Origin: Escherichia coli
Lineage (GTDB): Bacteria; Pseudomonadota; Gammaproteobacteria; Enterobacterales; Enterobacteriaceae
NCBI RefSeq assembly: GCF_024298765.1
Contig: NZ_CP101210.1
Direction: 5' to 3' (one strand)
DNA length: 64,000 bases
In this document: positions 6,405 to 47,369 of the stretch, in pieces
Numbering within the stretch: position 1 is the stretch's first letter
How the letters are laid out: the number at the start of each line of letters is the position of its first letter
Translations under genes and position numbers: made by a program
The notes under the pieces: generated by a model
The model's input: only the letters and a program-made list of their open reading frames with translations
Databases searched by the model: none
Told to the model about the DNA's origin: nothing

Positions 6405-6419
6405 TCCGGCGTTTCGGCA

Positions 6420-8669: not shown

Positions 8670-8692
8670 TCGTACAGGGTAGTACAAATAAA

Positions 8693-8722: not shown

Positions 8723-8786
8723 TTGTGAGCAGTAACTTAAAAATAACAATCTAATATCAACTTGTTAAAAAACAAGGAAGGCTAAT

Positions 8787-10088
8787 ATGCTAGTTGTAGA
8801 ACTCATCATAGTTTTGCTGGCGATCTTCTTGGGCGCCAGATTGGGGGGAATAGGTATTGGTTTTGCAGGCGGATTGGGGGTGCTGGTTCTTGCCGCTATT
8901 GGCGTTAAACCCGGTAACATCCCGTTCGATGTCATTTCCATTATCATGGCGGTTATCGCCGCTATTTCTGCCATGCAGGTTGCTGGCGGTCTGGACTATC
9001 TGGTTCATCAGACAGAAAAGCTGCTGCGCCGTAACCCGAAATACATCACGATCCTCGCACCGATCGTGACCTATTTCCTGACTATCTTTGCTGGTACTGG
9101 CAACATCTCTCTGGCGACACTGCCAGTTATCGCTGAAGTTGCGAAGGAACAAGGCGTTAAACCTTGCCGTCCGCTGTCTACTGCAGTGGTATCCGCGCAG
9201 ATTGCGATCACCGCATCGCCAATCTCAGCAGCAGTGGTTTACATGTCTTCCGTGATGGAAGGTCATGGCATCAGCTACCTCCATCTGCTCTCCGTGGTCA
9301 TCCCGTCCACCCTGCTGGCGGTTCTGGTGATGTCCTTCCTGGTCACTATGCTGTTCAACTCCAAACTCTCTGACGATCCGATTTATCGCAAGCGTCTGGA
9401 AGAGGGCCTGGTTGAACTGCGCGGTGAAAAGCAGATTGAAATCAAATCCGGTGCAAAAACGTCCGTCTGGCTATTCCTGCTGGGCGTAGTTGGCGTGGTT
9501 ATCTATGCAATCATCAACAGCCCAAGCATGGGTCTGGTTGAAAAACCGCTGATGAACACCACCAACGCAATCCTGATCATCATGCTCAGCGTTGCAACTC
9601 TGACCACCGTTATCTGTAAAGTCGATACCGACAACATCCTCAACTCCAGCACCTTCAAAGCAGGTATGAGCGCCTGTATTTGTATCCTGGGTGTTGCGTG
9701 GCTGGGCGATACTTTCGTTTCCAACAACATCGACTGGATCAAAGATACCGCTGGTGAAGTGATTCAGGGTCATCCGTGGCTGCTGGCCGTCATCTTCTTC
9801 TTTGCTTCTGCTCTGCTGTACTCTCAGGCTGCAACCGCAAAAGCACTGATGCCGATGGCTCTGGCACTGAACGTTTCTCCTCTGACCGCTGTTGCTTCTT
9901 TCGCTGCGGTGTCTGGTCTGTTCATTCTGCCGACCTACCCGACGCTGGTTGCTGCGGTACAGATGGATGACACGGGTACTACCCGTATCGGTAAATTCGT
10001 CTTCAACCATCCGTTCTTCATCCCGGGTACTCTGGGTGTTGCCCTGGCCGTTTGCTTCGGCTTCGTGCTGGGTAGCTTCATGCTGTAA
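8787..10088 (+). CDS. dcuA: anaerobic C4-dicarboxylate transporter DcuA
   Basis: 433-aa polytopic membrane ORF immediately downstream of aspA (aspA-dcuA operon arrangement). Confidence 0.95.
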   Translation: MLVVELIIVLLAIFLGARLGGIGIGFAGGLGVLVLAAIGVKPGNIPFDVISIIMAVIAAISAMQVAGGLDYLVHQTEKLLRRNPKYITILAPIVTYFLTIFAGTGNISLATLPVIAEVAKEQGVKPCRPLSTAVVSAQIAITASPISAAVVYMSSVMEGHGISYLHLLSVVIPSTLLAVLVMSFLVTMLFNSKLSDDPIYRKRLEEGLVELRGEKQIEIKSGAKTSVWLFLLGVVGVVIYAIINSPSMGLVEKPLMNTTNAILIIMLSVATLTTVICKVDTDNILNSSTFKAGMSACICILGVAWLGDTFVSNNIDWIKDTAGEVIQGHPWLLAVIFFFASALLYSQAATAKALMPMALALNVSPLTAVASFAAVSGLFILPTYPTLVAAVQMDDTGTTRIGKFVFNHPFFIPGTLGVALAVCFGFVLGSFML

Positions 10089-10094
10089 TGACCA

Positions 10095-10123
10095 ATCGCG
10101 GGGCTTCAGGCCCCGCTTTCTTT
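10095..10123 (+). terminator. rho-independent terminator after dcuA
   Basis: Hairpin gcggggcttcaggccccgc followed by tttcttt. Confidence 0.7.
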
Positions 10124-10202
10124 CCCGCCGACTAACATCCTTCCCCCGTCCGTTGTATAGTGACCTCTCTCTTGCGGTTCCATCTGTTCTTGCGAGGTGT
10201 TT

Positions 10203-10541
10203 ATGCTTGATGAAAAAAGTTCGAATACCGCGTCTGTCGTGGTGCTATGTACGGCACCGGATGAAGCGACAGCCCAGGATTTAGCCGCCAAAGTGCTGGC
10301 GGAAAAACTGGCGGCCTGCGCGACCTTGATCCCCGGCGCTACCTCTCTCTATTACTGGGAAGGTAAGCTGGAGCAAGAATACGAAGTGCAGATGATTTTA
10401 AAAACTACCGTATCTCTCCAGCAGGCACTGCTGGAATGCCTGAAGTCTCATCATCCATATCAAACCCCGGAACTTCTGGTTTTACCTGTTACACACGGAG
10501 ACACAGATTACCTCTCATGGCTCAACGCATCTTTACGCTGA
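10203..10541 (+). CDS. cutA: divalent-cation tolerance protein CutA
   Basis: ORF track 10197..10541 (GTG); ATG at 10203 gives 112 aa [55 protein letters not shown]; precedes dsbD. Confidence 0.9.
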
Positions 10542-12214
10542 TCCTGCTACTTTGCAGCACTTCCGTTTTTGCCGGATTATTCGACGCGCCGGGACGTTCA
10601 CAATTTGTCCCCGCGGATCAAGCCTTTGCTTTTGATTTTCAGCAAAATCAACATGATCTGAATCTGACCTGGCAGATCAAAGACGGTTACTACCTCTACC
10701 GTAAACAGATCCGCATTACGCCGGAACACGCGAAAATTGCTGACGTGCAGCTGCCGCAAGGCGTCTGGCATGAAGATGAGTTTTACGGCAAAAGCGAGAT
10801 TTACCGCGATCGGCTGACGCTTCCCGTAACCATCAACCAGGCGAGTGCGGGAGCAACGTTAACTGTCACCTACCAGGGCTGTGCTGATGCCGGTTTCTGT
10901 TATCCGCCAGAAACCAAAACCGTTCCGTTAAGCGAAGTGGTCGCCAACAACGAAGCGTCACAGCCTGTGTCTGTTCCGCAGCAAGAGCAGCCCACCGCGC
11001 AATTGCCCTTTTCCGCGCTCTGGGCGTTGTTGATCGGTATTGGTATCGCCTTTACGCCATGCGTGCTGCCAATGTACCCACTGATTTCTGGCATCGTGCT
11101 GGGCGGTAAACAGCGGCTTTCCACTGCCAGAGCATTGTTGCTGACCTTTATTTATGTGCAGGGGATGGCGCTGACTTACACGGCGCTGGGTCTGGTGGTT
11201 GCCGCCGCAGGGTTACAGTTCCAGGCGGCGCTACAGCACCCATACGTGCTCATTGGCCTCGCCATCGTCTTTACCTTGCTGGCGATGTCAATGTTTGGCT
11301 TGTTTACTCTGCAACTCCCCTCTTCGCTGCAAACACGTCTCACGCTGATGAGCAATCGCCAACAGGGCGGCTCACCTGGCGGTGTGTTTATTATGGGGGC
11401 GATTGCCGGACTGATCTGTTCACCATGCACCACTGCACCGCTTAGCGCGATTCTGTTGTATATCGCCCAAAGCGGGAACATGTGGCTGGGGGGCGGCACG
11501 CTTTATCTCTATGCGTTGGGCATGGGCCTGCCGCTGATGCTAATAACCGTCTTTGGTAACCGCCTGCTGCCGAAAAGCGGCCCGTGGATGGAACAAGTCA
11601 AAACCGCGTTTGGTTTTGTGATCCTCGCACTGCCGGTCTTCCTGCTGGAGCGAGTGATTGGCGATATATGGGGATTACGCTTGTGGTCGGCGCTTGGTGT
11701 CGCATTCTTTGGCTGGGCCTTTATCACCAGCCTACAGGCCAAACGCGGCTGGATGCGCGTAGTGCAAATAATCCTGCTGGCAGCGGCATTGGTTAGCGTG
11801 CGCCCACTTCAGGATTGGGCATTTGGTGCGACGCATACCGCGCAAACTCAGACGCATCTCAACTTTACACAAATCAAAACGGTAGATGAGTTAAATCAGG
11901 CGCTCGTTGAAGCCAAAGGCAAACCAGTGATGTTAGATCTCTATGCCGACTGGTGCGTCGCCTGTAAAGAGTTTGAGAAATACACCTTCAGCGACCCGCA
12001 GGTGCAAAAAGCGTTAGCAGACACGGTCTTACTTCAGGCCAACGTCACTGTCAACGACGCACAAGATGTGGCGCTGTTAAAGCATCTTAATGTCCTTGGC
12101 CTACCGACAATTCTCTTTTTTGACGGACAAGGCCAGGAGCATCCACAAGCACGCGTCACGGGCTTTATGGATGCTGAAACCTTCAGCGCACATTTGCGCG
12201 ATCGCCAACCGTGA
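10517..12214 (+). CDS. dsbD: thiol:disulfide interchange protein DsbD (DipZ)
   Basis: ORF track 10436..12214; start at [19 protein letters not shown] (signal peptide) gives 565 aa; central TM domain with CxxC pairs and C-terminal thioredoxin fold (WCVACK). Confidence 0.95.
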
Positions 12215-12250
12215 ACGACACTTGCAGTGGGAAAGACGGAGGAAAATAGC

Positions 12251-12826
12251 GTGCAACGTGAAGATGTACTGGGAGAAGCCCTGAAATTATTAGAATTACA
12301 AGGGATTGCCAACACCACGCTGGAGATGGTTGCTGAACGTGTGGATTATCCACTGGACGAGCTACGCCGCTTCTGGCCAGACAAAGAGGCAATCCTCTAC
12401 GATGCGCTGCGTTATCTTAGCCAACAGATAGATGTCTGGCGTCGTCAGCTGATGCTGGACGAAACGCAAACCGCCGAACAAAAGTTGCTGGCACGTTATC
12501 AGGCGTTATCGGAGTGCGTTAAAAACAACCGCTATCCGGGCTGTCTGTTTATCGCTGCCTGTACGTTTTATCCCGATCCTGGCCACCCTATTCATCAACT
12601 GGCCGATCAGCAAAAAAGCGCGGCCTACGATTTCACCCACGAACTGTTAACCACGCTGGAAGTTGACGATCCGGCGATGGTAGCAAAGCAGATGGAACTG
12701 GTGCTGGAAGGCTGTTTAAGCCGAATGCTGGTGAATCGTAGCCACGCGGATGTCGACACCGCACATCGGCTGGCAGAAGATATCCTGCGCTTCGCTCGCT
12801 GCCGCCAGGGTGGCGCACTGACCTGA
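12251..12826 (+). CDS. yjdC: TetR-family transcriptional regulator YjdC
   Basis: ORF track 12227..12826; GTG at 12251 gives 191 aa starting (M)[30 protein letters not shown] (TetR HTH); synteny dsbD-yjdC-pheU. Confidence 0.8.
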
Positions 12827-12932
12827 CAGAAACACAGAAAAGAAGCGATTTGCCGCAATCTTAAGCAGTTGAATCGCTTTTACTGAAATTAGGTTGACGA
12901 GATGTGCAGATTACGGTTTAATGCGCCCCGTT

Positions 12933-13008
12933 GCCCGGATAGCTCAGTCGGTAGAGCAGGGGATTGAAAATCCCCGTGTCCTTGGTTCGATTCCGAGTCC
13001 GGGCACCA
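12933..13008 (+). tRNA. pheU: tRNA-Phe (anticodon GAA)
   Basis: 76-nt sequence GCCCGGATAGCTCAGTCGGTAGAGCAGGGGATTGAAAATCCCCGTGTCCTTGGTTCGATTCCGAGTCCGGGCACCA; anticodon loop ATTGAAAAT; identical to remembered E. coli tRNA-Phe; pheU assignment from yjdC neighbourhood. Confidence 0.97.
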
Positions 13009-27785: not shown

Positions 27786-28133
27786 TTACAGCATGGTCAG
27801 GGAGGTCAGCAGCCGCTTAGGCTGTCGCCAGTCGATACCTTCCAGCAGCATCGCCAGCTGCGCCTGTGTAAGGAACACTTTGCCATCACGGGCTGACGGC
27901 CAGGCGAAGCGCCCACGCTCCAGCCGTTTGGTCAGGAGGCACAGTCCGTCACCGGTGGACCACAGCAGTTTAACCTGACTGCCGCTGCGGCCCCGGAAAA
28001 TGAAAACATGGCCGGACATGGGATCGTCTTTCAGCGCCGTCTGTACTTTCGCAGCCAGGCCGTTGAAGCCATTTCTCATATCGGTGATACCGGCAACCAG
28101 CCAAATTTTGGTCCCGGAAGGTAACGGGATCAT
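27786..28133 (-). CDS. tnpB: IS66-family Orf2 (TnpB)
   Basis: 115-aa ORF MIPLPSGTKIWLVAGITDMRNGFNGLAAKV; canonical IS66 Orf2. Confidence 0.85.
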   Translation of the reverse strand: MIPLPSGTKIWLVAGITDMRNGFNGLAAKVQTALKDDPMSGHVFIFRGRSGSQVKLLWSTGDGLCLLTKRLERGRFAWPSARDGKVFLTQAQLAMLLEGIDWRQPKRLLTSLTML

Positions 28134-28531
28134 CGCTTCAGTTCCTGTATCAGCAGAGTCAGGAGCTTTTCGCTGACATTGCCATTGAAGCGGAGCGTCC
28201 CGTGCCGGAACGTTACCTCACAGCTGATACTGAGGGTTTCCGGGTCCTCTGCGAGCGATTCTGGCTGTTCGGCAGCTGCATCGAGAGTCACAGGAAGTAG
28301 CTGGGGGCTCTCTGAAGAAGGTAATATCAGCTTTCCCTCGCGCCATTGTTGTCGCCATTTGAACAACAGATTGGCGTTAATGCCATTTTCAAGAGCAAGT
28401 TTTGAGATGTATATCCCGGGTTCACAGGAGGCAGCAACGAGCTGCTGTTTAAATTCGGGAGGATAATTAGGGCAGCCTTTTCGCCTGCCGGGAGTCACAT
28501 TTTTCTGCATATCTGACACTTTGGTTCCCAC
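28130..28531 (-). CDS. tnpA: IS66-family Orf1 (TnpA)
   Basis: 133-aa ORF overlapping tnpB by 4 nt; typical IS66 Orf1. Confidence 0.8.
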   Translation of the reverse strand: MGTKVSDMQKNVTPGRRKGCPNYPPEFKQQLVAASCEPGIYISKLALENGINANLLFKWRQQWREGKLILPSSESPQLLPVTLDAAAEQPESLAEDPETLSISCEVTFRHGTLRFNGNVSEKLLTLLIQELKR

Positions 28532-28587: not shown

Positions 28588-28943
28588 ATGAGCAAATTTT
28601 CATTAGAATTCAAAAGGGAAGTATCAGAAAAATACCTGGAAGGTGAGCTGAGTTTGAAGTCTGTTGGAAAAATGTACAATATTGACCCCAGCACGGTAAG
28701 GAAATGGGCTTATGTTTACCGTAAGCACGGATTAAAAACACTGACTGGGCAAAAAAGACGTTATGACGATAACTTCAGATTGAATGTGGTCAGAGATGTT
28801 ATTGATAATTCTCTTTCTATAAGGGAAGCTGCAGTGAAGTATGGGATCCCTGCTTTTAACACCATATCCAAATGGATTAAAAAATACAGTGAGGTTGATT
28901 TTTCGATGAAGGGACAAAAGGAAGATTTGAGGCCGAAAACTCC
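28588..28943 (+). pseudogene. HTH transposase-like OrfA gene, 3-prime end replaced by IS1
   Basis: 125-aa ORF with two HTH-like segments; last codons are encoded by the IS1 terminal repeat beginning at 28944. Confidence 0.5.
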
Positions 28944-28998
28944 GGTGATGCTGCCAACTTACTGATTTAGTGTATGATGGTGTTTTTGAGGTGCTCCA

Positions 28999-29274
28999 GT
29001 GGCTTCTGTTTCTATCAGCTGTCCCTCCTGTTCAGCTACTGACGGGGTGGTGCGTAACGGCAAAAGCACCGCCGGACATCAGCGCTATCTCTGCTCTCAC
29101 TGCCGTAAAACATGGCAACTGCAGTTCACTTACACCGCTTCTCAACCCGGTACGCACCAGAAAATCATTGATATGGCCATGAATGGCGTTGGATGCCGGG
29201 CAACAGCCCGCATTATGGGCGTTGGCCTCAACACGATTTTACGTCACTTAAAAAACTCAGGCCGCAGTCGGTAA
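28999..29274 (+). CDS. insA: IS1 InsA
   Basis: 91-aa [46 protein letters not shown]... Confidence 0.95.
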
Positions 29275-29696
29275 CCTCGCGCATACAGCCGGGCAGTGAT
29301 GTGATTGTCTGCGCTGAAATGGACGAACAGTGGGGCTACGTCGGTGCTAAATCACGTCAGCGATGGCTGTTTTACGCGTATGACAGGATACGGAGGACGG
29401 TTGTGGCGCACGTCTTCGGTGAACGCACTCTGGCCACACTGGAGCGTCTTCTGAGCCTGCTGTCGGCCTTTGAGGTCGTGGTATAGATGACGGATGGCTG
29501 GCCGCTGTATGAATCACGCCTGAAGGGAAAGCTGCACGTTATCAGCAAGCGTTACACTCAGCGCATTGAGCGACATAATCTGAATCTGAGACAACATCTG
29601 GCAAGGCTGGGACGGAAGTTACTGTCGTTCTCAAAATCGGTGGAGTTGCATGACAAGGTCATCGGGCATTATCTGAACATAAAACACTATCAGTAA
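29193..29696 (+). pseudogene. insB: IS1 insB with internal stop (TAG at 29484..29486)
   Basis: insB reading frame split into 29193..29486 and 29487..29696; canonical ...FEVVMWMTDGW... reads ...FEVVV*MTDGW... here. Confidence 0.8.
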
Positions 29697-29837
29697 GTTG
29701 GAGTCATTACCTCCTCCCGAACTCAAAGCTATCATACAGATAATTACTGGTTAACCCTATATAGGGCATTTTAAAGTGTTGTGATCTTACCCAGCAATAG
29801 TGGACACGCGGCTAAGTGAGTAAACTCTCAGTCAGAG

Positions 29838-30143
29838 GTGACTCACAAGACAAAACAGTTTCAACCAGTAAAAAAACGTAAACAGCATTCGCCTGAATTT
29901 CTCAGTGAAGCCCTGAAACTTGCTGAACGCATCGGTGTTGCTGCCGCAGCCCGTGAACTCAGCCTGTATGAATCACAGCTCTATGCGTGGCGCAGCAAAC
30001 TGCAGCAACAAATGAGTTCGTCAGAGCGTGAAAGTGAACTGGCCGCTGAAAATGCCCGCCTGAAGCGGCAACTGGCGGAGCAGGCAGAGGAACTGGCTAT
30101 CCTCCAAAAGGCCGCGACATACTTTGCGAATCGTCTGAAATGA
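29838..30143 (+). CDS. IS3 OrfA (GTG start)
   Basis: 101-aa HTH/leucine-zipper ORF ...[42 protein letters not shown]... Confidence 0.85.
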
Positions 30144-31006
30144 AGTATGTCTTTATTGAAAAACATCAGGCTGAGTTCAGCATCAAAGCAATGTGCCGCG
30201 TGCTCCGGGTGGCCCGCAGCGGCTGGTATACGTGGTGTCAGCGGCGGACAAGGATAAGCACGCGTCAGCAGTTCCGCCAACACTGCGACAGCGTTGTCCT
30301 CGCGGCTTTTACCCGGTCAAAACAGCGTTACGGTGCCCCACGCCTGACGGATGAACTGCGTGCTCAGGGTTACCCCTTTAACGTAAAAACCGTGGCGGCA
30401 AGCCTGCGCCGTCAGGGACTGAGGGCAAAGGCCTCCCGGAAGTTCAGCCCGGTCAGCTACCGCGCACACGGCCTGCCTGTGTCAGAAAATCTGTTGGAGC
30501 AGGATTTTTACGCCAGTGGCCCGAACCAGAAGTGGGCAGGAGACATCACGTACTTACGTACAGATGAAGGCTGGCTGTATCTGGCAGTGGTCATTGACCT
30601 GTGGTCACGTGCCGTTATTGGCTGGTCAATGTCGCCACGCATGACGGCGCAACTGGCCTGCGATGCCCTGCAGATGGCGCTGTGGCGGCGTAAGAGGCCC
30701 CGGAACGTTATCGTTCACACGGACCGTGGAGGCCAGTACTGTTCAGCAGATTATCAGGCGCAACTGAAGCGGCATAATCTGCGTGGAAGTATGAGCGCAA
30801 AAGGTTGCTGCTACGATAATGCCTGCGTGGAAAGCTTCTTTCATTCGCTGAAAGTGGAATGTATCCATGGAGAACACTTTATCAGCCGGGAAATAATGCG
30901 GGCAACGGTGTTTAATTATATCGAATGTGATTACAATCGGTGGCGGCGGCACAGTTGGTGTGGCGGCCTCAGTCCGGAACAATTTGAAAACCAGAACCTC
31001 GCTTAG
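30140..31006 (+). CDS. IS3 OrfB (integrase core, DDE)
   Basis: 288-aa ORF with rve-type catalytic core (WAGDITYL...[15 protein letters not shown]...[10 protein letters not shown]...). Confidence 0.85.
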
Positions 31007-34494: not shown

Positions 34495-37400
34495 TTATAC
34501 CGTCGCTGCGTCGGTCACAACACCCAGCTCTTCGACTATCTTTTGCAGGCGGGCGATCTGCTCTATATCCGGGAACACACCGGTAACGCCTTCGTTGTGG
34601 ATATGCGTAAAAGGCTGTTCAAAGAGCTGCCGCATTTCAATGGTGCCGTAATCGCGAATGTGGTTTTTCAGCAATGACAGGAAGCGCAGTTGTTGGCTGG
34701 TCAGACTGTTATCAGCGGCGAACTGAGCAAAGCGCACTTCCACCGCGTCGCTGTCCATCCCGATGATGGTACGCAAAAGTTTATCCAGGCTGGCAGTTGC
34801 CTGCGGATAGAACTCTTTCAGTGCCCGGATATCAACGTTGGGGTTCTGGATCAGCACCAGCTTCGCCAGCTCATCCAGCTCGTTTTGCGTGACTGGCTCA
34901 CCGTTGCGGATTTTCTTCAGCACCGGATTTTGCTGGAACAGCGGCTCCAACGCTCCCTGAACCTGCTGGCGATAGAGTTTGAAATCAATCGAGCGGATAT
35001 TAGTTTTGCGGGTCTCTGTCTGGATCAGGTTCGCATCTTCGGTAATATCTACCTGTATCGAACCAAATTTTGGCGTCGCGTCTTTTTCCATCAGGTGCAT
35101 GATGCCGCGCAGATGAATGCGGATATCTTCCAGCTCTTCCAGGCTGGCCTGCTTCCACCAGCCTAAATCACGAAGCTGATTGATCCGCGGTCCTTGCTGT
35201 TGGACCTGCGCCAAATGCGGCGGCAGGCGCTCCACTTTTTCGACGATGACCGGCCAGAGCACATCCAGCTCTTCCGGGTTGGTATAACGGGCAGTTTGCG
35301 CCGCCAGAATATCCATATCAAAGCGCATAGCGTCGCTTTGCCCGCGCACGTCCAGCCACTGCATCAGCGGGGCCAGGACAGATAGCAAATCCTGCTGTGT
35401 TTTCGGGGAAAGCTGGCGCAGCACTTTTTCATCGCTGTACTGCGCTTTTTGATGCCACTTTTCCTGGACGGCAATCGACTTTTCATCCAGTGCATTGATT
35501 TGCTCGCGTAGCTGGTGAGCAACTAAATCCACCGCCTGTTTGTCGAATTTACGTTGCGCAGCGGCCCCCAGCATAACCCACGCTTCGAAGCGTTTTTGTG
35601 CAAGCGATTTTGTCGCTGTGACTTCGGCCTCTTCGGTATGCAGTTCGTGATACTCAAAATTGCCCCAGTGATCGAAAATGCGGAATTTCTGTTTATCCAG
35701 AGGTTTGCCGTTATCGTCGTAACCGTACAACCCCGGACAGAGGCGCGTACCACGGCCAATCATCTGCCAGAACTTCACTTTTGATTTGACCGGTTTGGCA
35801 AAGACCAGATTCACAATTTCCGGGACATCAATACCGGTATCGAGCATGTCAACGGAGATAGCGATGGTCAGCTCTTTGTTGGTGCTTTCATCCAGCCCTT
35901 TAAAATCATCAATCAGTTGCTCGGCGCGGGGATCGTAATTGTCGATGACCTGGCAGAAGCGCCCGGCAAACTGCGGGTACATATCGTCGAATAATTCATT
36001 CAACAGCAGCGCGTGTTTGTGGTTACGGGCGAAAATGATGGTTTTACCTGGCAACTGGCCGTCCCGATCTTTCAGGCCATTTTCCATCAGGTTACGCAGG
36101 ATATAGCGGTTGGTGTCTTTGTTGTAGATCGCCTCATCCAGCGCCTTGCCATCAAACTCCAGCGTATTGGGATCTATGCCTTGTTCTTCCAGCTCGCGGA
36201 TTTGTGCGTCGCTTAATTTCTCCCGTTTGATGCCTTCGCGCAGGAATTCTGTGGTGTGCGTGACAACCTCATAGGGAACCAGATTGTTATCGGCGATGGC
36301 ATCTTCCAGGCTGTAGTTGGCGGTAGGAATACGTCCTTCACAACCAAACAGGCCGAAAGTGGTTTTACTCACCATGTCAATCGGCGTGGCCGTCAGGCCA
36401 ATCTGGAGGGCATCAAAATACTTAAACAGATCGCCGTAAACGTTGTAGATAGAGCGATGGGATTCATCGGCGATGATCAAATCGAAATAACCAACATCGA
36501 AATGGTCCATGATTTTCATCATACCAGGATAGGTGGCGATGTAGATCCTAGCATTCTGCCTGTCTGCTTTTTTCGATTTCCCGACCACATACAGCGGCTC
36601 ATTGGTGAATTGATTAAAGGCATTCGCCGCCTGTTTACGTAGTTCCTTGCGGTCGCAAAGAAACAGGACGCGTTTTACCCAGCGGGCATCAATCATCAGT
36701 TTGCTTAGCGCTATTGCCACGCGGGTTTTGCCTGTACCCGTAGCCTGAACAATTAGCGATTGCCGGTATTTGTTGGTAAACCGCTCGCTGACACGGGCAA
36801 TGGTTTCAAGCTGGTACAAACGTCCGGCAACGGCCTTACCTTCGTTATCTTTTACGTGCGGCACACTGTTCAGCGGAAGACGGGTTTCACGCTGTTGAAT
36901 AAGATATTGCAGGCTTTCCTTGCTGTAGAAGCCAAACACCCGACGCGGGGGATAACCATGAGTTTTATGGTCATCCCACAGCCAGATATCATAGCCGTTG
37001 GTGTAGAAGATGATCGGACGCTGGCCGTATTCTTTTTCCAGCCAGTCTGCATACAGCCGGGCCTGAATTCGTCCTTGCTCGGCATTGACGCTGGTTTTTT
37101 TTGCTTCCACCACCGCCAGCGGTTTGTGTGCCTCATCCCACAAGACATAGTCCGCATAACCGTCTCCGGTCGCGGTAGGTTGTTCTTTAACGGGATGTTC
37201 CTGCGTAACCTGATCGGTATTTTTAAGGCCTTCGCCTACATTCCAGTCAGCAGCAAGCAGGCGAGAGTCAATCAGGCGACGGCGGGTTTCCGCTTCATCA
37301 ATAGAGAGAATATCGGCAACATGCTGGTTACGCGCTCTGGCTTCATTCAGGCGTTGAGTGAGGTGTTCGGCCTTTTCCTGTTCTTGCTGTAGTGCGCGTT

Positions 37401-37911
37401 GCAGCGCCAGTTCGCGCTCACGGCTTTCATCCTGAGCCCTGATTGCATCTTCCAGACGTTTTTCATCTGCACGACCTGAAGATTGTGTTAATGGAGGGAG
37501 TGTAAATTTGGGGCAGTCATCAACATTACCGTGGGCGTAGCGAACATACAGCCAAATTCCCAACAAATACGCTTCTTTGAGCAGCCAGTAAGTATCTTTA
37601 GCTTTGATACGTCCGCCGTGCGCGGCACGGTTGCCATGGATACGCAGCGCATCCATTTTCATGATGATGGCTTCCGGCATCATGCTGGTAAAGACATCAG
37701 CATTCATTAAATCGTAAAGATTAGCCTTAATACCTTCCGGCAACCGCTCCTGACGATACAACCAGCGCACCATCAATTCGGTGTAGTTGCGCAGCTTGAC
37801 CAGACAGCTTTCCGGATCGGAGTGAACATAGCGTTCCGCCATACACGCGAGTTCAGCCAGTTCCGGCCACTGGCTGCGCAACATTTCAAAATTGAGAGAC
37901 TGCTCCATCAA
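34495..37911 (-). CDS. hsdR: type I restriction enzyme endonuclease/helicase subunit HsdR
   Basis: 1138-aa ORF; PD-(D/E)xK-like segment (DYVLWD...VVEAKK), SF2 helicase motifs (ATGTGKT, DESH); upstream of hsdM on same strand. Confidence 0.9.
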   Translation of the reverse strand: MMEQSLNFEMLRSQWPELAELACMAERYVHSDPESCLVKLRNYTELMVRWLYRQERLPEGIKANLYDLMNADVFTSMMPEAIIMKMDALRIHGNRAAHGGRIKAKDTYWLLKEAYLLGIWLYVRYAHGNVDDCPKFTLPPLTQSSGRADEKRLEDAIRAQDESRERELALQRALQQEQEKAEHLTQRLNEARARNQHVADILSIDEAETRRRLIDSRLLAADWNVGEGLKNTDQVTQEHPVKEQPTATGDGYADYVLWDEAHKPLAVVEAKKTSVNAEQGRIQARLYADWLEKEYGQRPIIFYTNGYDIWLWDDHKTHGYPPRRVFGFYSKESLQYLIQQRETRLPLNSVPHVKDNEGKAVAGRLYQLETIARVSERFTNKYRQSLIVQATGTGKTRVAIALSKLMIDARWVKRVLFLCDRKELRKQAANAFNQFTNEPLYVVGKSKKADRQNARIYIATYPGMMKIMDHFDVGYFDLIIADESHRSIYNVYGDLFKYFDALQIGLTATPIDMVSKTTFGLFGCEGRIPTANYSLEDAIADNNLVPYEVVTHTTEFLREGIKREKLSDAQIRELEEQGIDPNTLEFDGKALDEAIYNKDTNRYILRNLMENGLKDRDGQLPGKTIIFARNHKHALLLNELFDDMYPQFAGRFCQVIDNYDPRAEQLIDDFKGLDESTNKELTIAISVDMLDTGIDVPEIVNLVFAKPVKSKVKFWQMIGRGTRLCPGLYGYDDNGKPLDKQKFRIFDHWGNFEYHELHTEEAEVTATKSLAQKRFEAWVMLGAAAQRKFDKQAVDLVAHQLREQINALDEKSIAVQEKWHQKAQYSDEKVLRQLSPKTQQDLLSVLAPLMQWLDVRGQSDAMRFDMDILAAQTARYTNPEELDVLWPVIVEKVERLPPHLAQVQQQGPRINQLRDLGWWKQASLEELEDIRIHLRGIMHLMEKDATPKFGSIQVDITEDANLIQTETRKTNIRSIDFKLYRQQVQGALEPLFQQNPVLKKIRNGEPVTQNELDELAKLVLIQNPNVDIRALKEFYPQATASLDKLLRTIIGMDSDAVEVRFAQFAADNSLTSQQLRFLSLLKNHIRDYGTIEMRQLFEQPFTHIHNEGVTGVFPDIEQIARLQKIVEELGVVTDAATV

Positions 37912-38004
37912 TCATCGCCTTATGTCGTGGATACAACAGCATTTCTGGAAAGAATATCACACTAATTTGGCCGACGAAGTGAGCCGGAAAGGGCGGAATT
38001 ACCA

Positions 38005-38337
38005 TTAATTCTCATATTTAAAGTCGATGTTTATTTTGAGTGTTTCAATATTCACAGTGACTTCGCAACCATGCCAGAATGGCTTTTCTTGTGATTTAAA
38101 GTTATCCACAAACAAATTTCTTAGTTCCACCAAAAGATCTAAAAGTCTTTCACTGGCATCTGCGGTTTCAGTGATCCAATGTTGATTGCCCTGTTTATCT
38201 ACATAGTCATAAGTAAACTCACCACAGTCGCTTTCCGGTTCTAACTTTGCACACAGAATGATTTTGACTGCATCACTAGGAGTGATCGATAGCAACACCG
38301 AACCAATGTCATTATAAATATCCTGATCAGAACGCAT
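38005..38337 (-). CDS. cdiI: putative CdiI immunity protein for the adjacent CdiA-CT toxin
   Basis: 110-aa ORF whose ATG overlaps the cdiA stop (TAATG); position immediately downstream of a VENN-delimited CdiA-CT. Confidence 0.6.
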   Translation of the reverse strand: MRSDQDIYNDIGSVLLSITPSDAVKIILCAKLEPESDCGEFTYDYVDKQGNQHWITETADASERLLDLLVELRNLFVDNFKSQEKPFWHGCEVTVNIETLKINIDFKYEN

Positions 38338-41300
38338 TATTTACCTCCGGGTGCATTGTTAAATACTTTTTCAATCGGGCGACCTCCATCTATCGAATAT
38401 ACTACTTTAAATTTAGCAGGTCTGACACTATCCCCAATATACGATGGCTGAATGTTGACCTTAACCTCTTTTCCTTCACCCAATGCTTTTGCCCAAGTAT
38501 TTTCCATCTGCTTCCAGGCTCCTTTGTTCAGATTTCCATCCATTGGAACAAGGTTCAATTTTTCACCAGGACCATTAAAAATACTGGCTATTAAATGACC
38601 ACCCTCATCTCCATCAAGGCCACACTTACCTGCTTTACATTGTTGATAGCCATTTCTATCCTTTACATTAGGACTAAGAGTTGCTTCAACCTGGCTTGGC
38701 CTTGCCTGAGCATCAGTTTTATAAATTTTATCACCATCTACATGATAAACTTTATTCGGCTGTGGGTTATTTAGCTCTTTGCTCCAGTTCCCTTTACCAC
38801 CTGAGTCTAGCATCAGCTTTTCAAGTGACTCCGCACTGATTTTCTGACCTGTCTGTTTTTCAACAGCCATTAGAGCCTTCAACTCTGACAACTCGCTGGC
38901 AGACATTTTACCAACCGCCGCTACTGTCAGGCCCGCTGGAAGAGCATCGCCAGCGACCATTTCCGCAACCCAGATACTAACTTCATTTGCACACAGCACA
39001 GTATTCGCACCACAGGCACTGACTGCTGCCTGGGCGGCTGCAATTGCTTCCGGAGTCAGAGCAATCACTACCCCACCTGTAGCCCCCCCAACAAGCGCTG
39101 CTGCAATCGCTTTGTTTACAGCCTCACCGCGTTTACATTCAGCCCCGCCAGGGTTAGTCGAGCAGGACGCAATATCTTTGCCATGCTCCTGCACGAACTT
39201 GGTCTGAGTGTCTTCATTACCACCCAGCAGGTTATTCTCAACAACATTCTTCCCAGCAGCAGCTCCGGTAGCCACACCCGCAGTATTCCCACCTGCAACA
39301 CCACCCGCCATACCTGCTGAGATACTCGCCAGCGTACTTAGCGTCTGCTTCTGGTCCTCGGTCAGCTTCGACAGGTCTTTCTCATCCGGATATAAAACCT
39401 TCGCGATTGCACCTGCGATAAGTTCACCGCTCACCGCACCGACTGAACCTGCTGCGGCATTATTTCCCTGAAGAGCCGCAGTCACACCGCCGAGAATGGC
39501 ATGAGCAATGGCTTTCGCTGCATCGTTATCATTAATTCCAGCATTGTGCCCTATGAAGTTTGCCAGTTCCGGTGCAGAAGCTCCGGCCAGAGCACCCGCT
39601 AAATTCCCCCCAGCCAGTCCCTGAAGCGCGGCTGTCGCGGCCTGGATACCCCGCTGCATATCGCTACCGGTACCATACTTTTCCTGTTCCTTTTTGTATT
39701 CCGGCGTATCACGCAGTTTTGCCAGATATGCCTGCCGCTGTTCTTCCGTCGTATCCGCCGGAACAGGCCCATATTTATCCTGCGCAGCCTTCAACGCATT
39801 CAGTTCACCCTGCGTCCGCGCGATATCCGCCACCTGACTGCCTATGTCACTGATAAGCCCCACTGTCTGCAGACGCCTCTGCTCTTTCTCCTTGTCAAAT
39901 ATCGGGCTGATACTGTCGTTGGCGTGTTCCGGGTCACGGCTCAGGTTCGCCAGATTCTGCTTCTGATTGTCCCTGTCCCGGATGGTGATAGTGCCTTCTG
40001 CCACTGCGGCCTGAGTCGTTCCTTCCGCATGTCCGCTGTGACCTCCGGCGGATATCATGCCACCCGGCATGTTACCCTGAAATTTATCCCCGAAGCTGCC
40101 ACCACCGCTCAGACTGATTCCACTGTGACTGACTTTATAATCCGCTTCGTTGTGAAGGTCACTGAACCCCAGCGTTCCGGTATCCAGGTGGTTTTTATCC
40201 GGTGTGGCAGTGGAGGCAATCACCGCACCATCCAGTTGGGTATGTTTACCCACTGTGATGTCGAAGCCGCCGTCACCGGCAAACATTCCGGTTTGTTCAG
40301 CAACGGAGTCAAAGCGGCTCTTCATCTTATCCCGGGAGGCAGCGATGTAACCTGAGCCGGTCATGGAGCCAAAGGTAAAACTGCCGCCGGCAGCCACGCT
40401 GGTCTGTTTACTGTCGTACTTACTGGTGTCCTGCTGGCTGCTTATCAGCAGGTCGTGGCCCACATCGGCGATAATCCTGTTGCCGTTGACCTGAGCACCG
40501 TTCAGTACCGTATCCCGACCACTGTTGATGGTGACGGTTTTACCGCTGTCTATTGTGGTTTCAGTCCACTCAGTACCGTTACCTTTCTCGCTGCCTTTTG
40601 CCGCATTAACGCTGGCAAAGACACTGATACCGGCACCGTTACCACCGGCACCGATACTGACACCCACGCCACCGCCACTGCTGCTGTTCCTGCCCGTTGT
40701 TTTTTGTGTGTTTGCCGCGCCACTCAACAGAACATCATTCGCAGCATCCAGGTTTGTGTTACCACCGGCCTTAAGCTGGCTTCCGGCAATCACAATATCT
40801 CCGCGGTTATCGCCCCTGTTTTTACCGGTTGCGACAACAGACAGATTATTCCCGGCATTCAGCGTACTGCCGGATACTGTGTCACTTTCAGAATGTTGTT
40901 GTGATTTCGATTTCTGGGTGGTGAGCGACAGGCTGACTCCCATCGCATTCGGGTCACCGGTTGCGGAGGCCATTGCCGCAGCCTGTCCGGCCTGCACACC
41001 AGACAGCGCTGTCTTTGTAGCCTGCAGGGTTTTCAGACGGCTGTCACTGCTCTCCTTCGTCTCCTGTGCACTGGTGACCGCATTATTGATGGCACTGCCC
41101 ACTGTGCCGGAAAGGGCAACCGTCAGCCCGCTTTTCTTCTGCTCAAATTTTTCGTCCACAGTACGACGGTCATGCCCCGGGTCAACCACCACACTGTCAC
41201 CGGTAATGCTGATATCCCGGTTCGCAATCACATCCGAACCGCTGATATGAGCCTGTTTGCCCGCGGTAATACTGACATTACCGGCAGTGGAGCCGATGGT

Positions 41301-41801
41301 ACTGGCACTCTGACTCTGCGTTGTCCCGGCCTCGCGGCGGTCGTGCGTTGTCTTACTGCTGCCAATGGTGAAGCCAATACCGCCGGTACCCATCAGACCG
41401 GATTTCTTCGTTTCCTTAAAGCGCCAGGACGTATCTGTACTGGTGGCAGCAAGAACATCAACATGGTTACCCGCCGCCAGTGACACATCCCGGTCAGCCA
41501 CCACATCCGAACCCTCTACCGTCAGGTTATCACCGGCGTTAACGGTCACGCGGTTCCCCGACAGCAGGGAGCCTGCTTCACGGGAGGCACTGTTCTCACT
41601 GATGGTGTGGGTGGTTTTCTTACTGAGAAAACCTCCGCTTTTTTTCTTCGTTTCCAGATAGTGATAGTCACTTTCTGTCGCCGTGGTCAGGGCGACATCA
41701 CGACCGGCATTCACACTGATATTGCCGGTTGCGGTAACGGATGACGCAACAGCGGTGATACGCATACTGAAGAGCATTCCGTATAAAGATTCAGCTGGCA
41801 A
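38337..41801 (-). CDS. cdiA: 5-prime-truncated contact-dependent inhibition toxin CdiA fragment (FHA-repeat region, pretoxin VENN, variable CT toxin domain)
   Basis: 1154-aa ORF rich in Gly/Ser/Thr beta-helical repeats; VENN motif ([11 protein letters not shown]) encoded at 39231..39242; about 298-aa CT after VENN; no TPS domain or cdiB upstream. Confidence 0.8.
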
Positions 41802-42032
41802 AACTTTATCAGTCCATAAAAATCAACGGAAGCGCAGATGGTTCACACGTCCATTACCAACTGATTGTTGTCACAACCGGTAACACAAAGTACTGAACGA
41901 CTGTTTTTAACAGCGGTGTTGCGTCATCCACCACCGTGAAACAACGCTGTGCAGGGAATCGTCCGCATCCCCATAACGGTCAAACATCGTGGCGTTGACA
42001 GAATGACCGACGAAAAGCCAGAAAGCGCTGAT

Positions 42033-42581
42033 TCACTGAGCTGTAATCAATGTACAGCGCTGTACCGGACGATGGGTAATGGCGGTCACAACCGGTAACC
42101 CCAGAGACAATGCGACTGTTTTTAACGCAACATACTGACCGGATGTATCACCCCGGGCAACCCGAAAACACCTTTCCACCCGGCATTGTCCGCCAGCACT
42201 TATCACCTGCCAGCTATGTTGCAGTAAATCCACCACTTGCGAACATTGTTCATCAACTGTGACACAGGCTCGCGGGTGACAAATACTCGTCTGGCTGAGC
42301 AGCAACAGGCATCGAATTGTTGCTCCTCCATGTTGTTCCCGCAACCAGCGTAATACCACCGACGATGATGGACTGGCAGTGTGATTGCTCTCAGTAATAC
42401 GTTCATGCAGTTGTCGATAAAAGGAAGTACAGAATGCATGAATCTGTTGCCCGTTGATATTTCCTTCTGCCGAATGGAGTGTGAAGTAAAATGCCAGCAA
42501 ATGCGGCCAGTGGTCCACCGCCTGCTGAACAAAACGCCGGATGTCTCCCGGCTCTGAAATTAAGGCTTCGGTTATTTGCAC
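42033..42581 (-). CDS. YfjJ/YagK (inovirus Gp2-like) family protein, possibly degenerate
   Basis: 182-aa ORF; pattern ...RWLREQHGG..IRCLLLLSQ... parallels ...FWCREFGKMYGRKHYHVILLLNKD... of the paralogue at 61862..62593. Confidence 0.4.
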   Translation of the reverse strand: MQITEALISEPGDIRRFVQQAVDHWPHLLAFYFTLHSAEGNINGQQIHAFCTSFYRQLHERITESNHTASPSSSVVLRWLREQHGGATIRCLLLLSQTSICHPRACVTVDEQCSQVVDLLQHSWQVISAGGQCRVERCFRVARGDTSGQYVALKTVALSLGLPVVTAITHRPVQRCTLITAQ

Positions 42582-43026
42582 GAAATGTTCCTTTTCAAAC
42601 CCTGTTGGATTTTGTCAAGACGGTACAGACACAGTAAAGCGCGCATCAACACCTGAAAGGTACGATACAAACACAAGTTACAAACAATAAGAACGGAAGG
42701 ACAATTAATCAGTGAGGAATAATAACTAAATTAACCAAAAGAATGTTACTGACAATACCACCAATACTTAAATAGCAATATATTAATTAATGTAAGAACA
42801 GATGCCCGGTAAGACATATACACAATACATCCACAAACACACTCTTTTCATTAAATAAATCACCTGATTAAACCATGAAAGTGTGATGTAAGTCAAAATT
42901 ACTGACACAATCAATTGATAATGATTATCTCTATCATTATCGTGAAATTCGAGAATGAAAGGAGAAGTAGTCATTATAAGTCTTTTATAAATCGTCATCA
43001 TCATAGTAAAGTAGAACACTTTTTAT

Positions 43027-43485
43027 ATGAGTTACTATATGAAAATATACTGGACAAGAAAAAACATTCCTGAACTTTCAGCACTTCCACCTTCATTAAG
43101 AAAGAAAAATTTTACTGACGCATATAATGCTGCATCTTCCCATATCGAATACTGGATAGGTGCTGGCGTCTCATTTATCTCGATGATGATTTTATTCAAA
43201 GTATATGACTTTCTTTTACCCGCCCAAGATACTTTCCCGGGTGATATCATAAGAAGTTTATGTGTTGTGTGTCCATCCATATTAATCTGGTTTCAGTTTT
43301 CGGTATATGTCATGAGGAAATATTACAGACATATTCTGGAACGAGGTAAGGAAACCGAAACCATTTCAGAAAGGTTGATACGTGAGGCTGATACACGAGA
43401 ATATGAATTATGGCGTCCGGCCCATCGCTTTTTCTCCATTATTCTATTAGTTTGCATTCATTCACTGATAACAACTATAAAATAA
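43027..43485 (+). CDS. hypothetical small membrane protein at edge of microcin cluster
   Basis: 152-aa ORF with 2-3 hydrophobic helices; no recognizable family. Confidence 0.4.
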   Translation: MSYYMKIYWTRKNIPELSALPPSLRKKNFTDAYNAASSHIEYWIGAGVSFISMMILFKVYDFLLPAQDTFPGDIIRSLCVVCPSILIWFQFSVYVMRKYYRHILERGKETETISERLIREADTREYELWRPAHRFFSIILLVCIHSLITTIK

Positions 43486-43584
43486 AAGTTATGGCTGTTC
43501 TGATACAGGAAAATAAACGTTCATTCTATGGTTACCTCTTCCTGTTATATAAAAGAATTTTAAACAACAAGTAAGGGAATATAA

Positions 43585-44271
43585 ATGGAAATAACAAAAA
43601 ATAAAAATGCAACTATAAAAAAACAGTCATCAGCCGGCTGCTTTTCAATGTTTACTTTATCATTTTCCATTACCTTTATTCCTGCATTTCTTACAAACAG
43701 GCAGGAACTTATATCCAGGGGGCTTCTTGTTCCAGCATTATTTCTTGCTGAATTTCTAATTCTTGTTCCACTGTATTTTATTTTCTTCCGAAAAAGAGAA
43801 GGATTAGGAAGAGGTTCTTTTCGACTGGATGTTTTTTTTACTCTTTTCTCTTTAATAATGATTATTCAGTTATTTGTCCCTTATCTGCTGGCAGTGAGGA
43901 AAACGGAAGAATGGATGATCTCGCAAATGTCTTTTTCCGGGGCCATTTTATGGATTAATATATTTTCTTCCGTACTTCTTGTTCCTGTATATGAAGAGAT
44001 TGTATTTCGAGGGTGTCTTTTTAACTCTTTTAAATTCTGGTTTAATGACAATATTTACATCTCTGCTATTGTAACATCAGTCATATTTTCTGCATTACAT
44101 CTACAATATACTGACTTTCGTACATTTTTGATGCTCTTTCTGATATCGTTAGTTCTTATCAGTGCAAAAATAAAGTCGAATGGCCTGTTAATGCCCATAT
44201 TACTTCACATGGCGATGAATGCAGTCATAACAGGAATACAATATACGTTACAATATCACATAACAGTCTGA
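43585..44271 (+). CDS. CPBP-family (CAAX protease/Abi) intramembrane protein, MceF/McmM-like microcin accessory protein
   Basis: 228-aa polytopic ORF with CPBP motifs EEIVFRG, FSALH and HMAMN; such genes accompany class II bacteriocin/microcin loci. Confidence 0.7.
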   Translation: MEITKNKNATIKKQSSAGCFSMFTLSFSITFIPAFLTNRQELISRGLLVPALFLAEFLILVPLYFIFFRKREGLGRGSFRLDVFFTLFSLIMIIQLFVPYLLAVRKTEEWMISQMSFSGAILWINIFSSVLLVPVYEEIVFRGCLFNSFKFWFNDNIYISAIVTSVIFSALHLQYTDFRTFLMLFLISLVLISAKIKSNGLLMPILLHMAMNAVITGIQYTLQYHITV

Positions 44272-44644
44272 AATTGTTATTATGAGATATCTATAACACC
44301 TGAAGTTGGAAAAAGAAGCAAATAATTCCTTATAAGGAATCGTTTACTAATATATTTAGATGATCTCATATTTGTTTATGATATACATCTGATTAAGATA
44401 TAATGGATTATAAATTACTCAAAGGTGAACAAATATCTTCGCCTTTTCTCGTAGAAAGAGACTTGAAACTTATAATACATCTATATAAACGTGATTTAAA
44501 TCACGATTTGCAGTAAAAGCAATTGGTATAATTCATTGGTATTACTATTATTTCATCTATTGCACGAACTATTTTACAACAATAAAAAAGATATACAAAC
44601 AGCAAGAAGTAAAAATATTCGGATAAATAAAAATTTTTGCTACC

Positions 44645-44881
44645 TTGGTTTCTATAGTCTTTATTTCTAAGTTTTTCATAAGCACTCAAAGACTCATGTA
44701 TAGGGACGGTTTAATAATGAAACTATTTTTTTATTTCTCGTTGTTCTTTATAATACAACTTATAAATTCAGACTTAGACACATTAACCCTTTATCTTTTC
44801 ATAAAGAAAATAATTCTTTCGTTACTTGCGAGTGTACTGTTTTTATTTGTTTTATCTTTCTTTAATAAAAAGAGGAAATAA
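44645..44881 (+). CDS. small hydrophobic protein, candidate microcin immunity protein
   Basis: 78-aa ORF (alternative start at 44717 gives 54 aa) ending 1 nt before the microcin-like precursor gene; two predicted TM helices. Confidence 0.45.
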   Translation: MVSIVFISKFFISTQRLMYRDGLIMKLFFYFSLFFIIQLINSDLDTLTLYLFIKKIILSLLASVLFLFVLSFFNKKRK

Positions 44882-44882
44882 C

Positions 44883-45206
44883 ATGAGAAATATAACAACC
44901 GATGAACTTGCTTTAATACATGGTGCAGGATTAGATAAAGATGCATCCGTTGCAATAGGTACTGCGGCTGGTGGTTTTTTAGGTAAAGCAACAAAAATCC
45001 CTGGTGCGGATATAGCAGGAAGTGCAATTGGAGGATATATTGGAGGAGTTATTGCTGATGGTTCAAATAGGACAATAACAATACCATCAAACGGTATTAA
45101 CTATAATCCGGGTATAGGACTTGGAAGTTTTAATCCAAACTACAATGGAGGTTTATTAAACTCAGGATTTAACTCATCAACATCCTCTTCTAGTAGTGGA
45201 AGTTGA
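44883..45206 (+). CDS. double-glycine-leader class IIb (siderophore-type) microcin precursor, identity unassigned
   Basis: ORF track 44826..45206; start at ATG 44883 (RBS aagagg) gives 107 aa; leader MRNITTDELALIHGA-G parallels MchB leader; Gly-rich core; Ser-rich C-terminal tail NSSTSSSSSGS. Confidence 0.65.
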   Translation: MRNITTDELALIHGAGLDKDASVAIGTAAGGFLGKATKIPGADIAGSAIGGYIGGVIADGSNRTITIPSNGINYNPGIGLGSFNPNYNGGLLNSGFNSSTSSSSSGS

Positions 45207-45266
45207 TTAATTTCTAAAGCAGCATAGCTTATTATGCAGCAATGCTGCTTTTAGTGATATATTATC

Positions 45267-47369
45267 CTAATTTGTAATTCTAAAAATCCGATCAACTGTT
45301 CTTAAAGTTGTCTCTCTATGTGCAATAATCACCCGGGTGATATTCATCTTTTTTATAGCAGCATTCACGAAACGTTCACTTTCTGTATCAAGAGAACTTG
45401 TAGCCTCATCCATAAATAATATTCCAGGTTTCCGGTATAAAGCTCGGGCAATGAATATACGCTGTTTTTGACCGCCGGAAAGACCTTCCCCCAGTTCACC
45501 TATTAACGTTTCATACCCCATTGGCATTTTCATTATCACATCATGAATATGACTTGCTCTGGCACATTCTGTCATCCATTCGTCGTCTGTTTCTTCTGCA
45601 AACCCACAGATATTTTCACGAATTGATCCTGAAAATAGCCGGTCGTCCTGCATAACACAGGCTATCATACGGTGATAATTATTTATTCCAAGTTGACGTA
45701 TATCCGTGCCATTAACCAGTACTTTTCCACTATCTGGTTCAAACAGTCCACATAATACTTTCATTAATGTGGTTTTTCCGGCACCGGAGGCACCAGTTAT
45801 AGCCACACTTTCTCCCGGAGCCACAGACAAATTCAGACCACTGAATACCTGTGCTGACTGGCTGTCATACCGGTAGCTTAAATCAGTGGTTTCCAGTGAA
45901 ACCGGGCTCATGTCAGCAACGATTTCAATTTCCGGTTTCTTTTCTTCCTTTTCATGTAGTGCAATATCTGCAATGCGCTCATTATGCAGACTCATTATTC
46001 TCAGTTGAAGAAGAAAACTGGTCAGCGAAGCAACCCGATCCGAAAACTGCCCACGAAAAGAACCAAATGCCACAAACATCCCTATTGTCATCTGATTATC
46101 GATCACAAGGCTTGCACCCAGCCATAAAATCGCCACCTGATCACAGGCGGCAACAAAAGTATTTATCCCCCCGAAGAGCAAATCCATCCTGGTTAACTTA
46201 ATACCTGAATTGATCGCATCTATTTTCAGGTTAAGCCAGTGTGTTCCCCGAATCCCAGCCATACCCTGGATTTTTACCGTGGCAATACCATACAGGCTTT
46301 CCATAAAATAGGAGCTGGCCCGGGCCCCCCTGACAAGAGTTTCTTCCGATATTTGCCGGTAATAGCCGTATGTCACCAGACGAATAAGAACGTAAACCAT
46401 GGTAAAACCGAGCACTATCCAGGTAAGATATCCTCCATATAACAGCATCATCACAAAAACACCCACAACCATAATACTGTCCATGATTGCCCCAACAACA
46501 CAGGTGGTAAAGGTGGCCCTCAAAGTGTCAAGGGAGCCAAAACGCGACTGGATATCACCTAATTTACGGCGTTCAAAAAACGCCAGCGGCAGTCTGAGAA
46601 GATGGTTAAACAGACCCGACTGCCACTGTATATTGATGAGCGTGCTCATAACCAGTGAGGACCATGCACGCAGCATACTCACCGCGGCCCTGAGCAATAT
46701 AAAGAACATCAGGCCAGCAGAAATAAGCGTCAGCAGCCCTCTGTCCCCCGCCGGAATCGCATGATCCATAACCAGCTGAGTTCCCACCGGCATTACCAGA
46801 TTGATTGCTTCAATTACAACTGACAGACAGAAAATTTTCGCCAGTGTTCTTTTAATACCGTAAATACTGTTAATCAGTGAACGGAGACTTATGCGGGTCT
46901 GCTGGGTTTCCGCCAGGAATTCACTTCCGGGCCAGACCTCAAGTGCAATGCCCGTAAAATACCGGCTCATTTCCTCCCGACCGAGATATCTTCTGCCTCT
47001 GGCCGGATCATGCAGTACATAACGGTTACGCTTTACGCTGACCAGCACGACGAAGTGACTGAAATCCCAGTGGAGAATACACGGCATTTTGAGGGCACCA
47101 AGTTCATCCAGCTCCAGTGAAAGAGCCCGGGTGACCATCCCCAGCTGCTCCGCTATTCCATTGATTCCTGCAAGGTTTGCTCCACGGGCCGAGAGATTAA
47201 ACTTCCGGCGAAGAGATATCAGGTCAATATTCTTACCAAAATGACCGCATATCATTGCCAGGCAGGCCAGTCCACATTCAGCGGTCTCCGTCTGATGAAT
47301 AACCGGAACACGACGTCGCCAGCGCATATCAAGCTGATTTATAATTTGTCTGAAATTCCCGTTAGTCAT
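45267..47369 (-). CDS. mchF: microcin export ABC transporter with N-terminal C39 peptidase domain (CvaB/MchF family)
   Basis: ORF track 45267..47387; near-identical over long stretches to remembered CvaB ([32 protein letters not shown]...); Walker [10 protein letters not shown], signature LSGGQKQR. Confidence 0.9.

Follow-up and report, generated by a model that had tools for sequence, protein, structure and literature searches.

Known IS1 isoforms and the copy in the window

The closest described systems are the IS1 copies of Escherichia coli K-12. IS1A and IS1E are the K-12 copies which actually transpose, and IS1F, which carries 73 mismatches from the consensus, makes no detectable contribution to native transposition (PMC12428005). 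When InsAB' is over-produced, IS1F is mobilized efficiently in trans, accounting for 44% of events among the non-consensus copies, and is the non-consensus copy most readily mobilized in this manner; miniIS1 is also mobilized by InsAB' supplied in trans (PMC12903888). In these 2025 studies of the six K-12 IS1 copies the immobility of IS1F was put down to amino-acid changes, or its reason was called unknown (PMC12428005, PMC12903888), and the main texts of both make no mention of a stop, a nonsense codon or a pseudogene in IS1F. A literature search on insB7 / b4576 returned nothing relevant. The RefSeq annotation of IS1F lists insB7 as a pseudogene, and its internal stop is a sufficient explanation for an element which is immobile alone yet readily mobilized in trans.

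The window analyzed here, a 64-kb stretch of E. coli DNA (64,000 nucleotides of contig NZ_CP101210.1), contains one IS1 copy, at 28944-29711. Columns given below are those of a gap-free 768-column alignment of this copy with K-12 IS1A and IS1F. The features of the element and its immediate flanks are as follows.

28588-28943, + strand: left flank, IS3-family element of which only the 5' part remains (HTH orfA; Pfam HTH_28/HTH_Tnp_1), cut by IS1
28944-29711, + strand: complete IS1, 768 bp, IS1A-left / IS1F-right hybrid, from both inverted repeats and the gap-free alignment
28944-28966, + strand: left inverted repeat GGTGATGCTGCCAACTTACTGAT, IS1A type (GGTGATG...), from a sequence search of the window
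28999-29274, + strand: insA, intact, 91 aa, GTG start, InsA repressor/inhibitor, from the open reading frame list and Pfam (Zn_ribbon_InsA and HTH_Tnp_IS1)
29250-29256, + strand: A6C programmed −1 frameshift motif AAAAAAC, intact, in a column invariant in all aligned isoforms
29288-29300, + strand: predicted IS1A-to-IS1F crossover interval, columns 345-357 (IS1A-specific bases end at column 345 and IS1F-specific ones begin at column 357)
29363, + strand: the sole private base, C>A (CGC>CGA, Arg>Arg, silent), found in neither IS1A nor IS1F
29484-29486, + strand: amber TAG replacing Trp163 (TGG) of InsAB', columns 541-543; the IS1F allele, same in K-12 IS1F
29487-29696, + strand: 3' remainder of insB' beyond the stop, 69 codons and a TAA, with no other damage; encodes the C-terminal half of the DDE domain (open reading frame list, Pfam)
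29689-29711, − strand: right inverted repeat GGTAATGACTCCAACTTACTGAT, IS1F type, from a sequence search of the window
29712-29781, + strand: right flank, a spacer of 70 bp with an IS3-family element beyond it, identical to the flank of genuine IS1F in N21, GPEC1031 and BL21-AI

The first-pass annotation of this DNA had described the IS1 as full length with good ends, and this was borne out: the element is exactly 768 bp, and each inverted repeat was matched once in the window where the chance expectation was 0. Over 23 bp the left and right repeats differ at 4 positions in the window copy, compared with 5 in IS1A and 3 in IS1F. The copy shares with the IS1 family its length of 768 bp with imperfect repeats of ~23 bp, the insA domains and the A6C motif, and lacks the open 232-aa InsAB' frame and the 8-9 bp target-site duplication. 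It is therefore IS1 by descent and not an autonomous IS1.

Comparison with the K-12 isoforms revealed a mosaic. IS1A and IS1F differ at 73 sites, which agrees with the published number (PMC12428005). In the window copy the first 31 of these (columns 4-345) are of IS1A type and the last 42 (columns 357-750) of IS1F type; counted as F-type sites this is 0/31 in columns 1-345 and 42/42 in columns 357-750. Over columns 1-344 there were 0/344 differences from IS1A and 30/344 from IS1F, while over columns 345-768 there were 43/424 differences from IS1A and 2/424 from IS1F. The copy does have the IS1F amber at Trp163 which defines the insB7 pseudogene allele, but it is a hybrid and not IS1F proper.

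For the right half the reference is K-12 IS1F (type IV; NC_000913.3 4518472-4519239; insA7 b4294, insB7 b4576 pseudogene), to which the window copy is identical from column 357 to the right end bar one silent base, including the TAG at Trp163, an S>L change in the tail and the right repeat. The right flank is likewise identical to that of IS1F in related genomes. Unlike K-12 IS1F, the left 345 bp (repeat, insA and frameshift region) are those of IS1A, with 31 differences from IS1F, and the left flank is an IS3-family element rather than ykiE-fecI. The copy resembles the autonomous "consensus" elements IS1A and IS1E in columns 1-344, in length, in its InsA protein and in the frameshift site, and the insA DNA is 100% identical to K-12 IS1A insA (insA1). 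It departs from them by the 43 differences in columns 345-768 and by TAG where both have TGG.

An intact relative common in E. coli is the A-left/F-right isoform of ETEC1720 (similar copies are annotated by PGAP as "IS1X2 family"), which has the same mosaic with a switch in columns 345-357 and 99.1% identity to the window copy. The ETEC1720 copy differs in having TGG and, at columns 573, 677 and 703, the bases of IS1A; it is enclosed by a 9-bp duplication, and the isoform is present many times per genome. Columns 542, 573, 677 and 703 distinguish IS1F from the ETEC1720-type right half, and at 4/4 of these the window copy has the IS1F base. In having intact ends and no working transposase gene the copy is also similar to the non-autonomous derivatives which are mobilized in trans (miniIS1 cassettes, MITE-like elements), although unlike these it is full length and retains insA, and a single base separates it from an open transposase frame.

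The amber codon, its predicted products and its distribution

The nonsense codon which had been proposed in insB at 29484-29486 was correct to the base. The insB' frame reads GTC GTG GTA TAG ATG ACG GAT GGC TGG, which translates as ...FEVVV*MTDGW.... The intact string had been given as FEVVMW; the Trp was right and the remainder inexact, since intact copies read FEVVVW (ETEC1720 type) or FDVVIW (K-12 IS1A). The accompanying claim that the InsAB transposase could not be made from this copy was also sustained, as the predicted −1 fusion stops at 162 of 232 residues. What did not survive was the implication that the lesion was peculiar to this copy. On alignment with the IS1 reference isoforms, the check which the annotation had itself suggested, K-12 IS1F was found to have the identical TAG at the same codon; this shared stop still does not rescue the transposase, insB7 being a pseudogene. 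The codon in the window is the IS1F insB pseudogene allele, already annotated in the E. coli K-12 reference, and is an old, widespread and inherited allele rather than a new mutation.

The −1 frameshift fusion was built conceptually and its domains were placed with Pfam. With codon 163 read as Trp the predicted InsAB' fusion has 232 residues, and this repaired protein contains Zn_ribbon_InsA (PF03811, residues 1-36), HTH_Tnp_IS1 (PF12759, residues 43-86) and DDE_Tnp_IS1 (residues 102-232); the PF03811 and PF12759 matches had E values of 1e-21 to 1e-28. As it stands the fusion has 162 residues, keeps the Zn-ribbon and HTH DNA-binding domains and covers only positions 1-61 of the 131 in the DDE_Tnp_IS1 profile. 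The 69-codon open reading frame which begins with the ATG right after the stop covers profile positions 63-131, and it has one amino-acid change (S>L) relative to intact copies. The sequence MDEQW (Asp109) lies upstream of the stop, and TDGW (Asp166) and IERHN (Glu191) lie downstream; we take Asp166 and Glu191 to be the second Asp and the Glu of the IS1 D-D-E motif, which fits the Pfam coverage.

Judged from sequence, InsA should still be producible from the window copy, while the rare −1 frameshift would yield no more than a fragment of 162 residues, in which the DNA-binding domains and the region of the first catalytic Asp are present and Asp166 and Glu191 are missing. The hybrid, as IS1F, presumably cannot move itself. 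Its two intact ends could allow it to be moved by InsAB' from another IS1, and in a suppressor host the amber may be read through. The reading frame would be restored by one A>G change or by gene conversion over a short patch, as in strain CH4804 (see below).

To count the allele among complete E. coli genomes a 55-mer query was used (29458-29512) in which the A of TAG is at position 28, so that every 28-base megablast seed includes the variant base. The TAG allele was found at 4,283 places in 3,108 of 5,426 genomes (57%), with a median of one per genome; for comparison, IS1 overall was found at 74,826 places or more in 4,970 genomes. An internal stop at this codon is annotated by PGAP in ACN002, N21, GPEC1031, BL21-AI, CU568-3, pS65EC and ATCC BAA-178. 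The TAG copies sampled from BL21-AI, an O25:H4 strain, an O104:H21 strain and plasmid pS65EC were all annotated "programmed frameshift; internal stop". The sampled copies lie in at least three different genomic contexts, and the O25:H4 and O104:H21 strains both have the amber IS1 at the mdtM-brnT locus. No target-site duplication was found at the amber copies sampled, which form a small set (K-12, N21, BL21-AI, the O25:H4 and O104:H21 mdtM-brnT copies and pS65EC), while the intact ETEC1720 copy has a clean 9-bp duplication (GGATTTTTT). In this small sample the pattern is consistent with amber copies having spread mainly through recombination and hitch-hiking. That the amber insB' allele is kept as a dormant transposase gene which can be reactivated in one step, or as an InsA-only dampener of IS1 activity, is a speculative and improbable reading; it draws on the presence of the allele in 57% of genomes, usually as a single copy, on the lack of a second inactivating lesion and on its restoration by gene conversion in CH4804.

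Junctions, the same locus in other strains and origin of the hybrid

No target-site duplication is present at the window IS1, the left side reading GAAAACTCC and the right side TCCTCCCGA. The IS3-family element on the left lies beside ISEc8. Uninterrupted copies of it were found in ECCNB12-2 and pGF4-A, where it continues with TGCTGTTTATC..., and this remaining part had no BLAST match in the window. At the corresponding position of the element IS1 is absent in pAA-EA11, a UPEC132 plasmid, pGF4-A, ECCNB12-2 and OkiPb01695. The fec side of the usual left flank of IS1F is likewise absent from the window. Further to the right, beyond the IS3-family element, are an AAA ATPase gene and a type I restriction-modification (R-M) system.

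Each junction of the window copy is held elsewhere by a pure isoform. In GPEC60-33-648, and at a second CH4804 site, pure IS1A-type copies whose right flank differs hold the identical left junction, and the identical right junction is held by full-length genuine IS1F in N21, GPEC1031 and BL21-AI, where the left neighbor is ykiE-fecI, as in K-12. A left junction shared with IS1A-type copies, a right junction shared with IS1F and a single switch of type between them together point to homologous recombination between two IS1 copies, which would also account for the missing target-site duplication. The event may have been a deletion, an inversion or the integration of a plasmid. One parent would have been an IS1A-type copy in an island module which contains PhoX, inside the IS3-family element that adjoins ISEc8. 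The other would have been an IS1F copy which, from its place in related genomes, had ykiE-fecI on one side and an IS3 / AAA-ATPase / type I R-M module on the other. The crossover would have fallen in columns 345-357, just past the insA stop, so that the IS1A left repeat, promoter region, insA and frameshift site were kept and the whole IS1F insB' with the Trp163 amber was gained.

The first parent was also predicted in silico, as IS3-family element, IS1A, 9-bp duplication and IS3-family continuation. When this construct was compared with complete E. coli genomes and plasmids there was no full-length match and only one-sided junctions were found. No genome was found with a duplication-flanked simple IS1 insertion in the IS3-family element, which would have recorded the first insertion event, and this counts against the recombination reading.

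The same locus was identified in three other strains. ACN002 has the same hybrid with TAG, and its sole difference from the window copy is at 29363. CH4804 has the same hybrid with four IS1A bases (GACGTGGTGATATGG) at columns 531-542, flanked by IS1F bases at columns 523 and 573, and the codon is TGG. This patch, at 3531-3542 of the CH4804 locus sequence (29474-29485 in window equivalents), is a gene-conversion tract of 12-49 bp which converted the amber to Trp, and the CH4804 copy at this locus is annotated as intact by PGAP. An IS1A-type copy lies 13 kb from the patched hybrid in the same genome and is a plausible donor. In XB2 both flanks are the same, and the IS1 (2028-2795 of the reverse complement in window orientation, equivalent to 28944-29711) is of IS1A type to column 621 and of IS1F type from column 630. 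The XB2 codon is TGG because of this crossover at columns 621-630. Two markers private to the IS1A-type copy of CH4804 (columns 444 and 494) are also found in the XB2 copy, which arose either by an independent crossover of the same two parents or by a long conversion tract. Whether the amber is present at this locus depends only on where the recombination and conversion tracts fell.

The longest tract of identity between IS1A and IS1F, 51 bp at columns 294-344, adjoins the crossover interval. In pS65EC an independent amber-bearing A-left/F-right hybrid changes type within columns 293-345, and the intact isoform of ETEC1720 type, a common one, goes from A-like to F-like in columns 345-357, as the window copy does. 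From these positions we infer a recombination hotspot beside the identity tract. The mosaic pattern is thus partly a family-wide feature, which counts against the recombination reading, although such a hotspot would explain the shared switch.

Several other origins of the TAG codon were weighed. A new TGG>TAG mutation private to the window copy, arising after insertion and independently of IS1F, would require only the single G>A transition which separates the window codon from that of the intact ETEC1720-type isoform. The TAG is, however, linked to other IS1F-specific bases (columns 573, 677 and 703), the right flank is that of IS1F, the allele is also in K-12 IS1F and 3,108 genomes, and the only truly private base is the silent one at 29363. 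The shared linked markers and shared flank effectively refute a private mutation, which we regard as highly improbable. An artefact of sequencing or assembly at 29485 had nothing specific in its favor apart from the tendency of IS copies to collapse in short-read assemblies. It was rejected and its probability is negligible, as the same TAG is present in the independently sequenced orthologous insertion of ACN002, in K-12 IS1F and in the 3,108 complete genomes, and the surrounding sequence is a coherent IS1F haplotype.

It was also considered that a pre-formed amber hybrid had transposed into the IS3-family element with help in trans, the right flank being lost later. Other amber A-left/F-right hybrids do exist, such as that of plasmid pS65EC, and IS1F-type elements can be mobilized in trans (PMC12903888). 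The window IS1 nevertheless has no target-site duplication, and pure IS1A-type copies hold the identical left junction (GPEC60-33-648, CH4804) and pure IS1F the identical right junction (N21, GPEC1031, BL21-AI), which is the pattern expected from recombination in place and would need two coincidences under transposition. This route was rejected on these two grounds and is considered very unlikely. A different type of objection concerns function, in that the amber may be leaky, with read-through or re-initiation at the adjacent ATG (TAGATG) giving enough transposase, possibly split, for autonomy. The ATG does follow the stop immediately and the 69 downstream codons are undamaged, but K-12 IS1F, with the same insB', makes no detectable contribution to native transposition (PMC12428005), the sampled amber copies all lack a target-site duplication while the intact copy has one, and these data give no indication that a DDE domain divided at profile position 61/63 would function as two parts. 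We consider autonomy by this means most unlikely. The reading we prefer, with a probability of roughly 0.92, is that the window copy is structurally complete yet non-autonomous, a hybrid formed by recombination between IS1A and IS1F which inherited the amber from IS1F.

Island context

The genomic island which contains the IS1 is inserted at tRNA-Phe (12933-13008), beside a dsbD-aspA-groL backbone (1-12900). In XB2 an island of 99.8% identity occupies the tRNA-Phe gene adjacent to yqgA, so that one island is found at different tRNA-Phe sites from strain to strain. The window IS1 is the seam between the PhoX/ISEc8 module and the R-M/CDI module of this island, and its hybrid structure together with the missing target duplication marks it as an IS-IS recombination joint of the two modules. 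The seam is of some help in following the history of the island. The finding itself is ordinary IS biology and an already known allele, of little importance beyond annotation, where the element should be labeled as a hybrid IS1 with an IS1F-type insB pseudogene and not as a freshly mutated IS1. The series formed by the window and ACN002, CH4804 and XB2 shows in compact form how recombination and gene conversion reshuffle defective IS copies in nature and can even repair them.

Other features of the island were noted. Compared with XB2, the window is without ~9.4 kb at ~41755-41760 (XB2 36662-46039), and with it the 5' portion of cdiA, cdiB and small neighboring genes; the locus for contact-dependent inhibition is apparently truncated, the remaining open reading frame being at 38337-41801 on the minus strand. 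The IS3-family element directly downstream of the IS1 extends from 29782 to about 31040 (orfA 29838-30143, orfB 30140-31006), and its orthologue is annotated as "frameshifted" in ACN002, CH4804, N21 and GPEC1031 and as "programmed frameshift" (intact) in XB2. On the other side the IS66-family element ISEc8 (28130-28531, extending upstream to about 26199, minus strand) adjoins the truncated IS3-family element, and its tnpC is annotated as frameshifted in XB2, CH4804 and GPEC60-33-648. The 26-31 kb part of the window is a pile-up of damaged IS elements.
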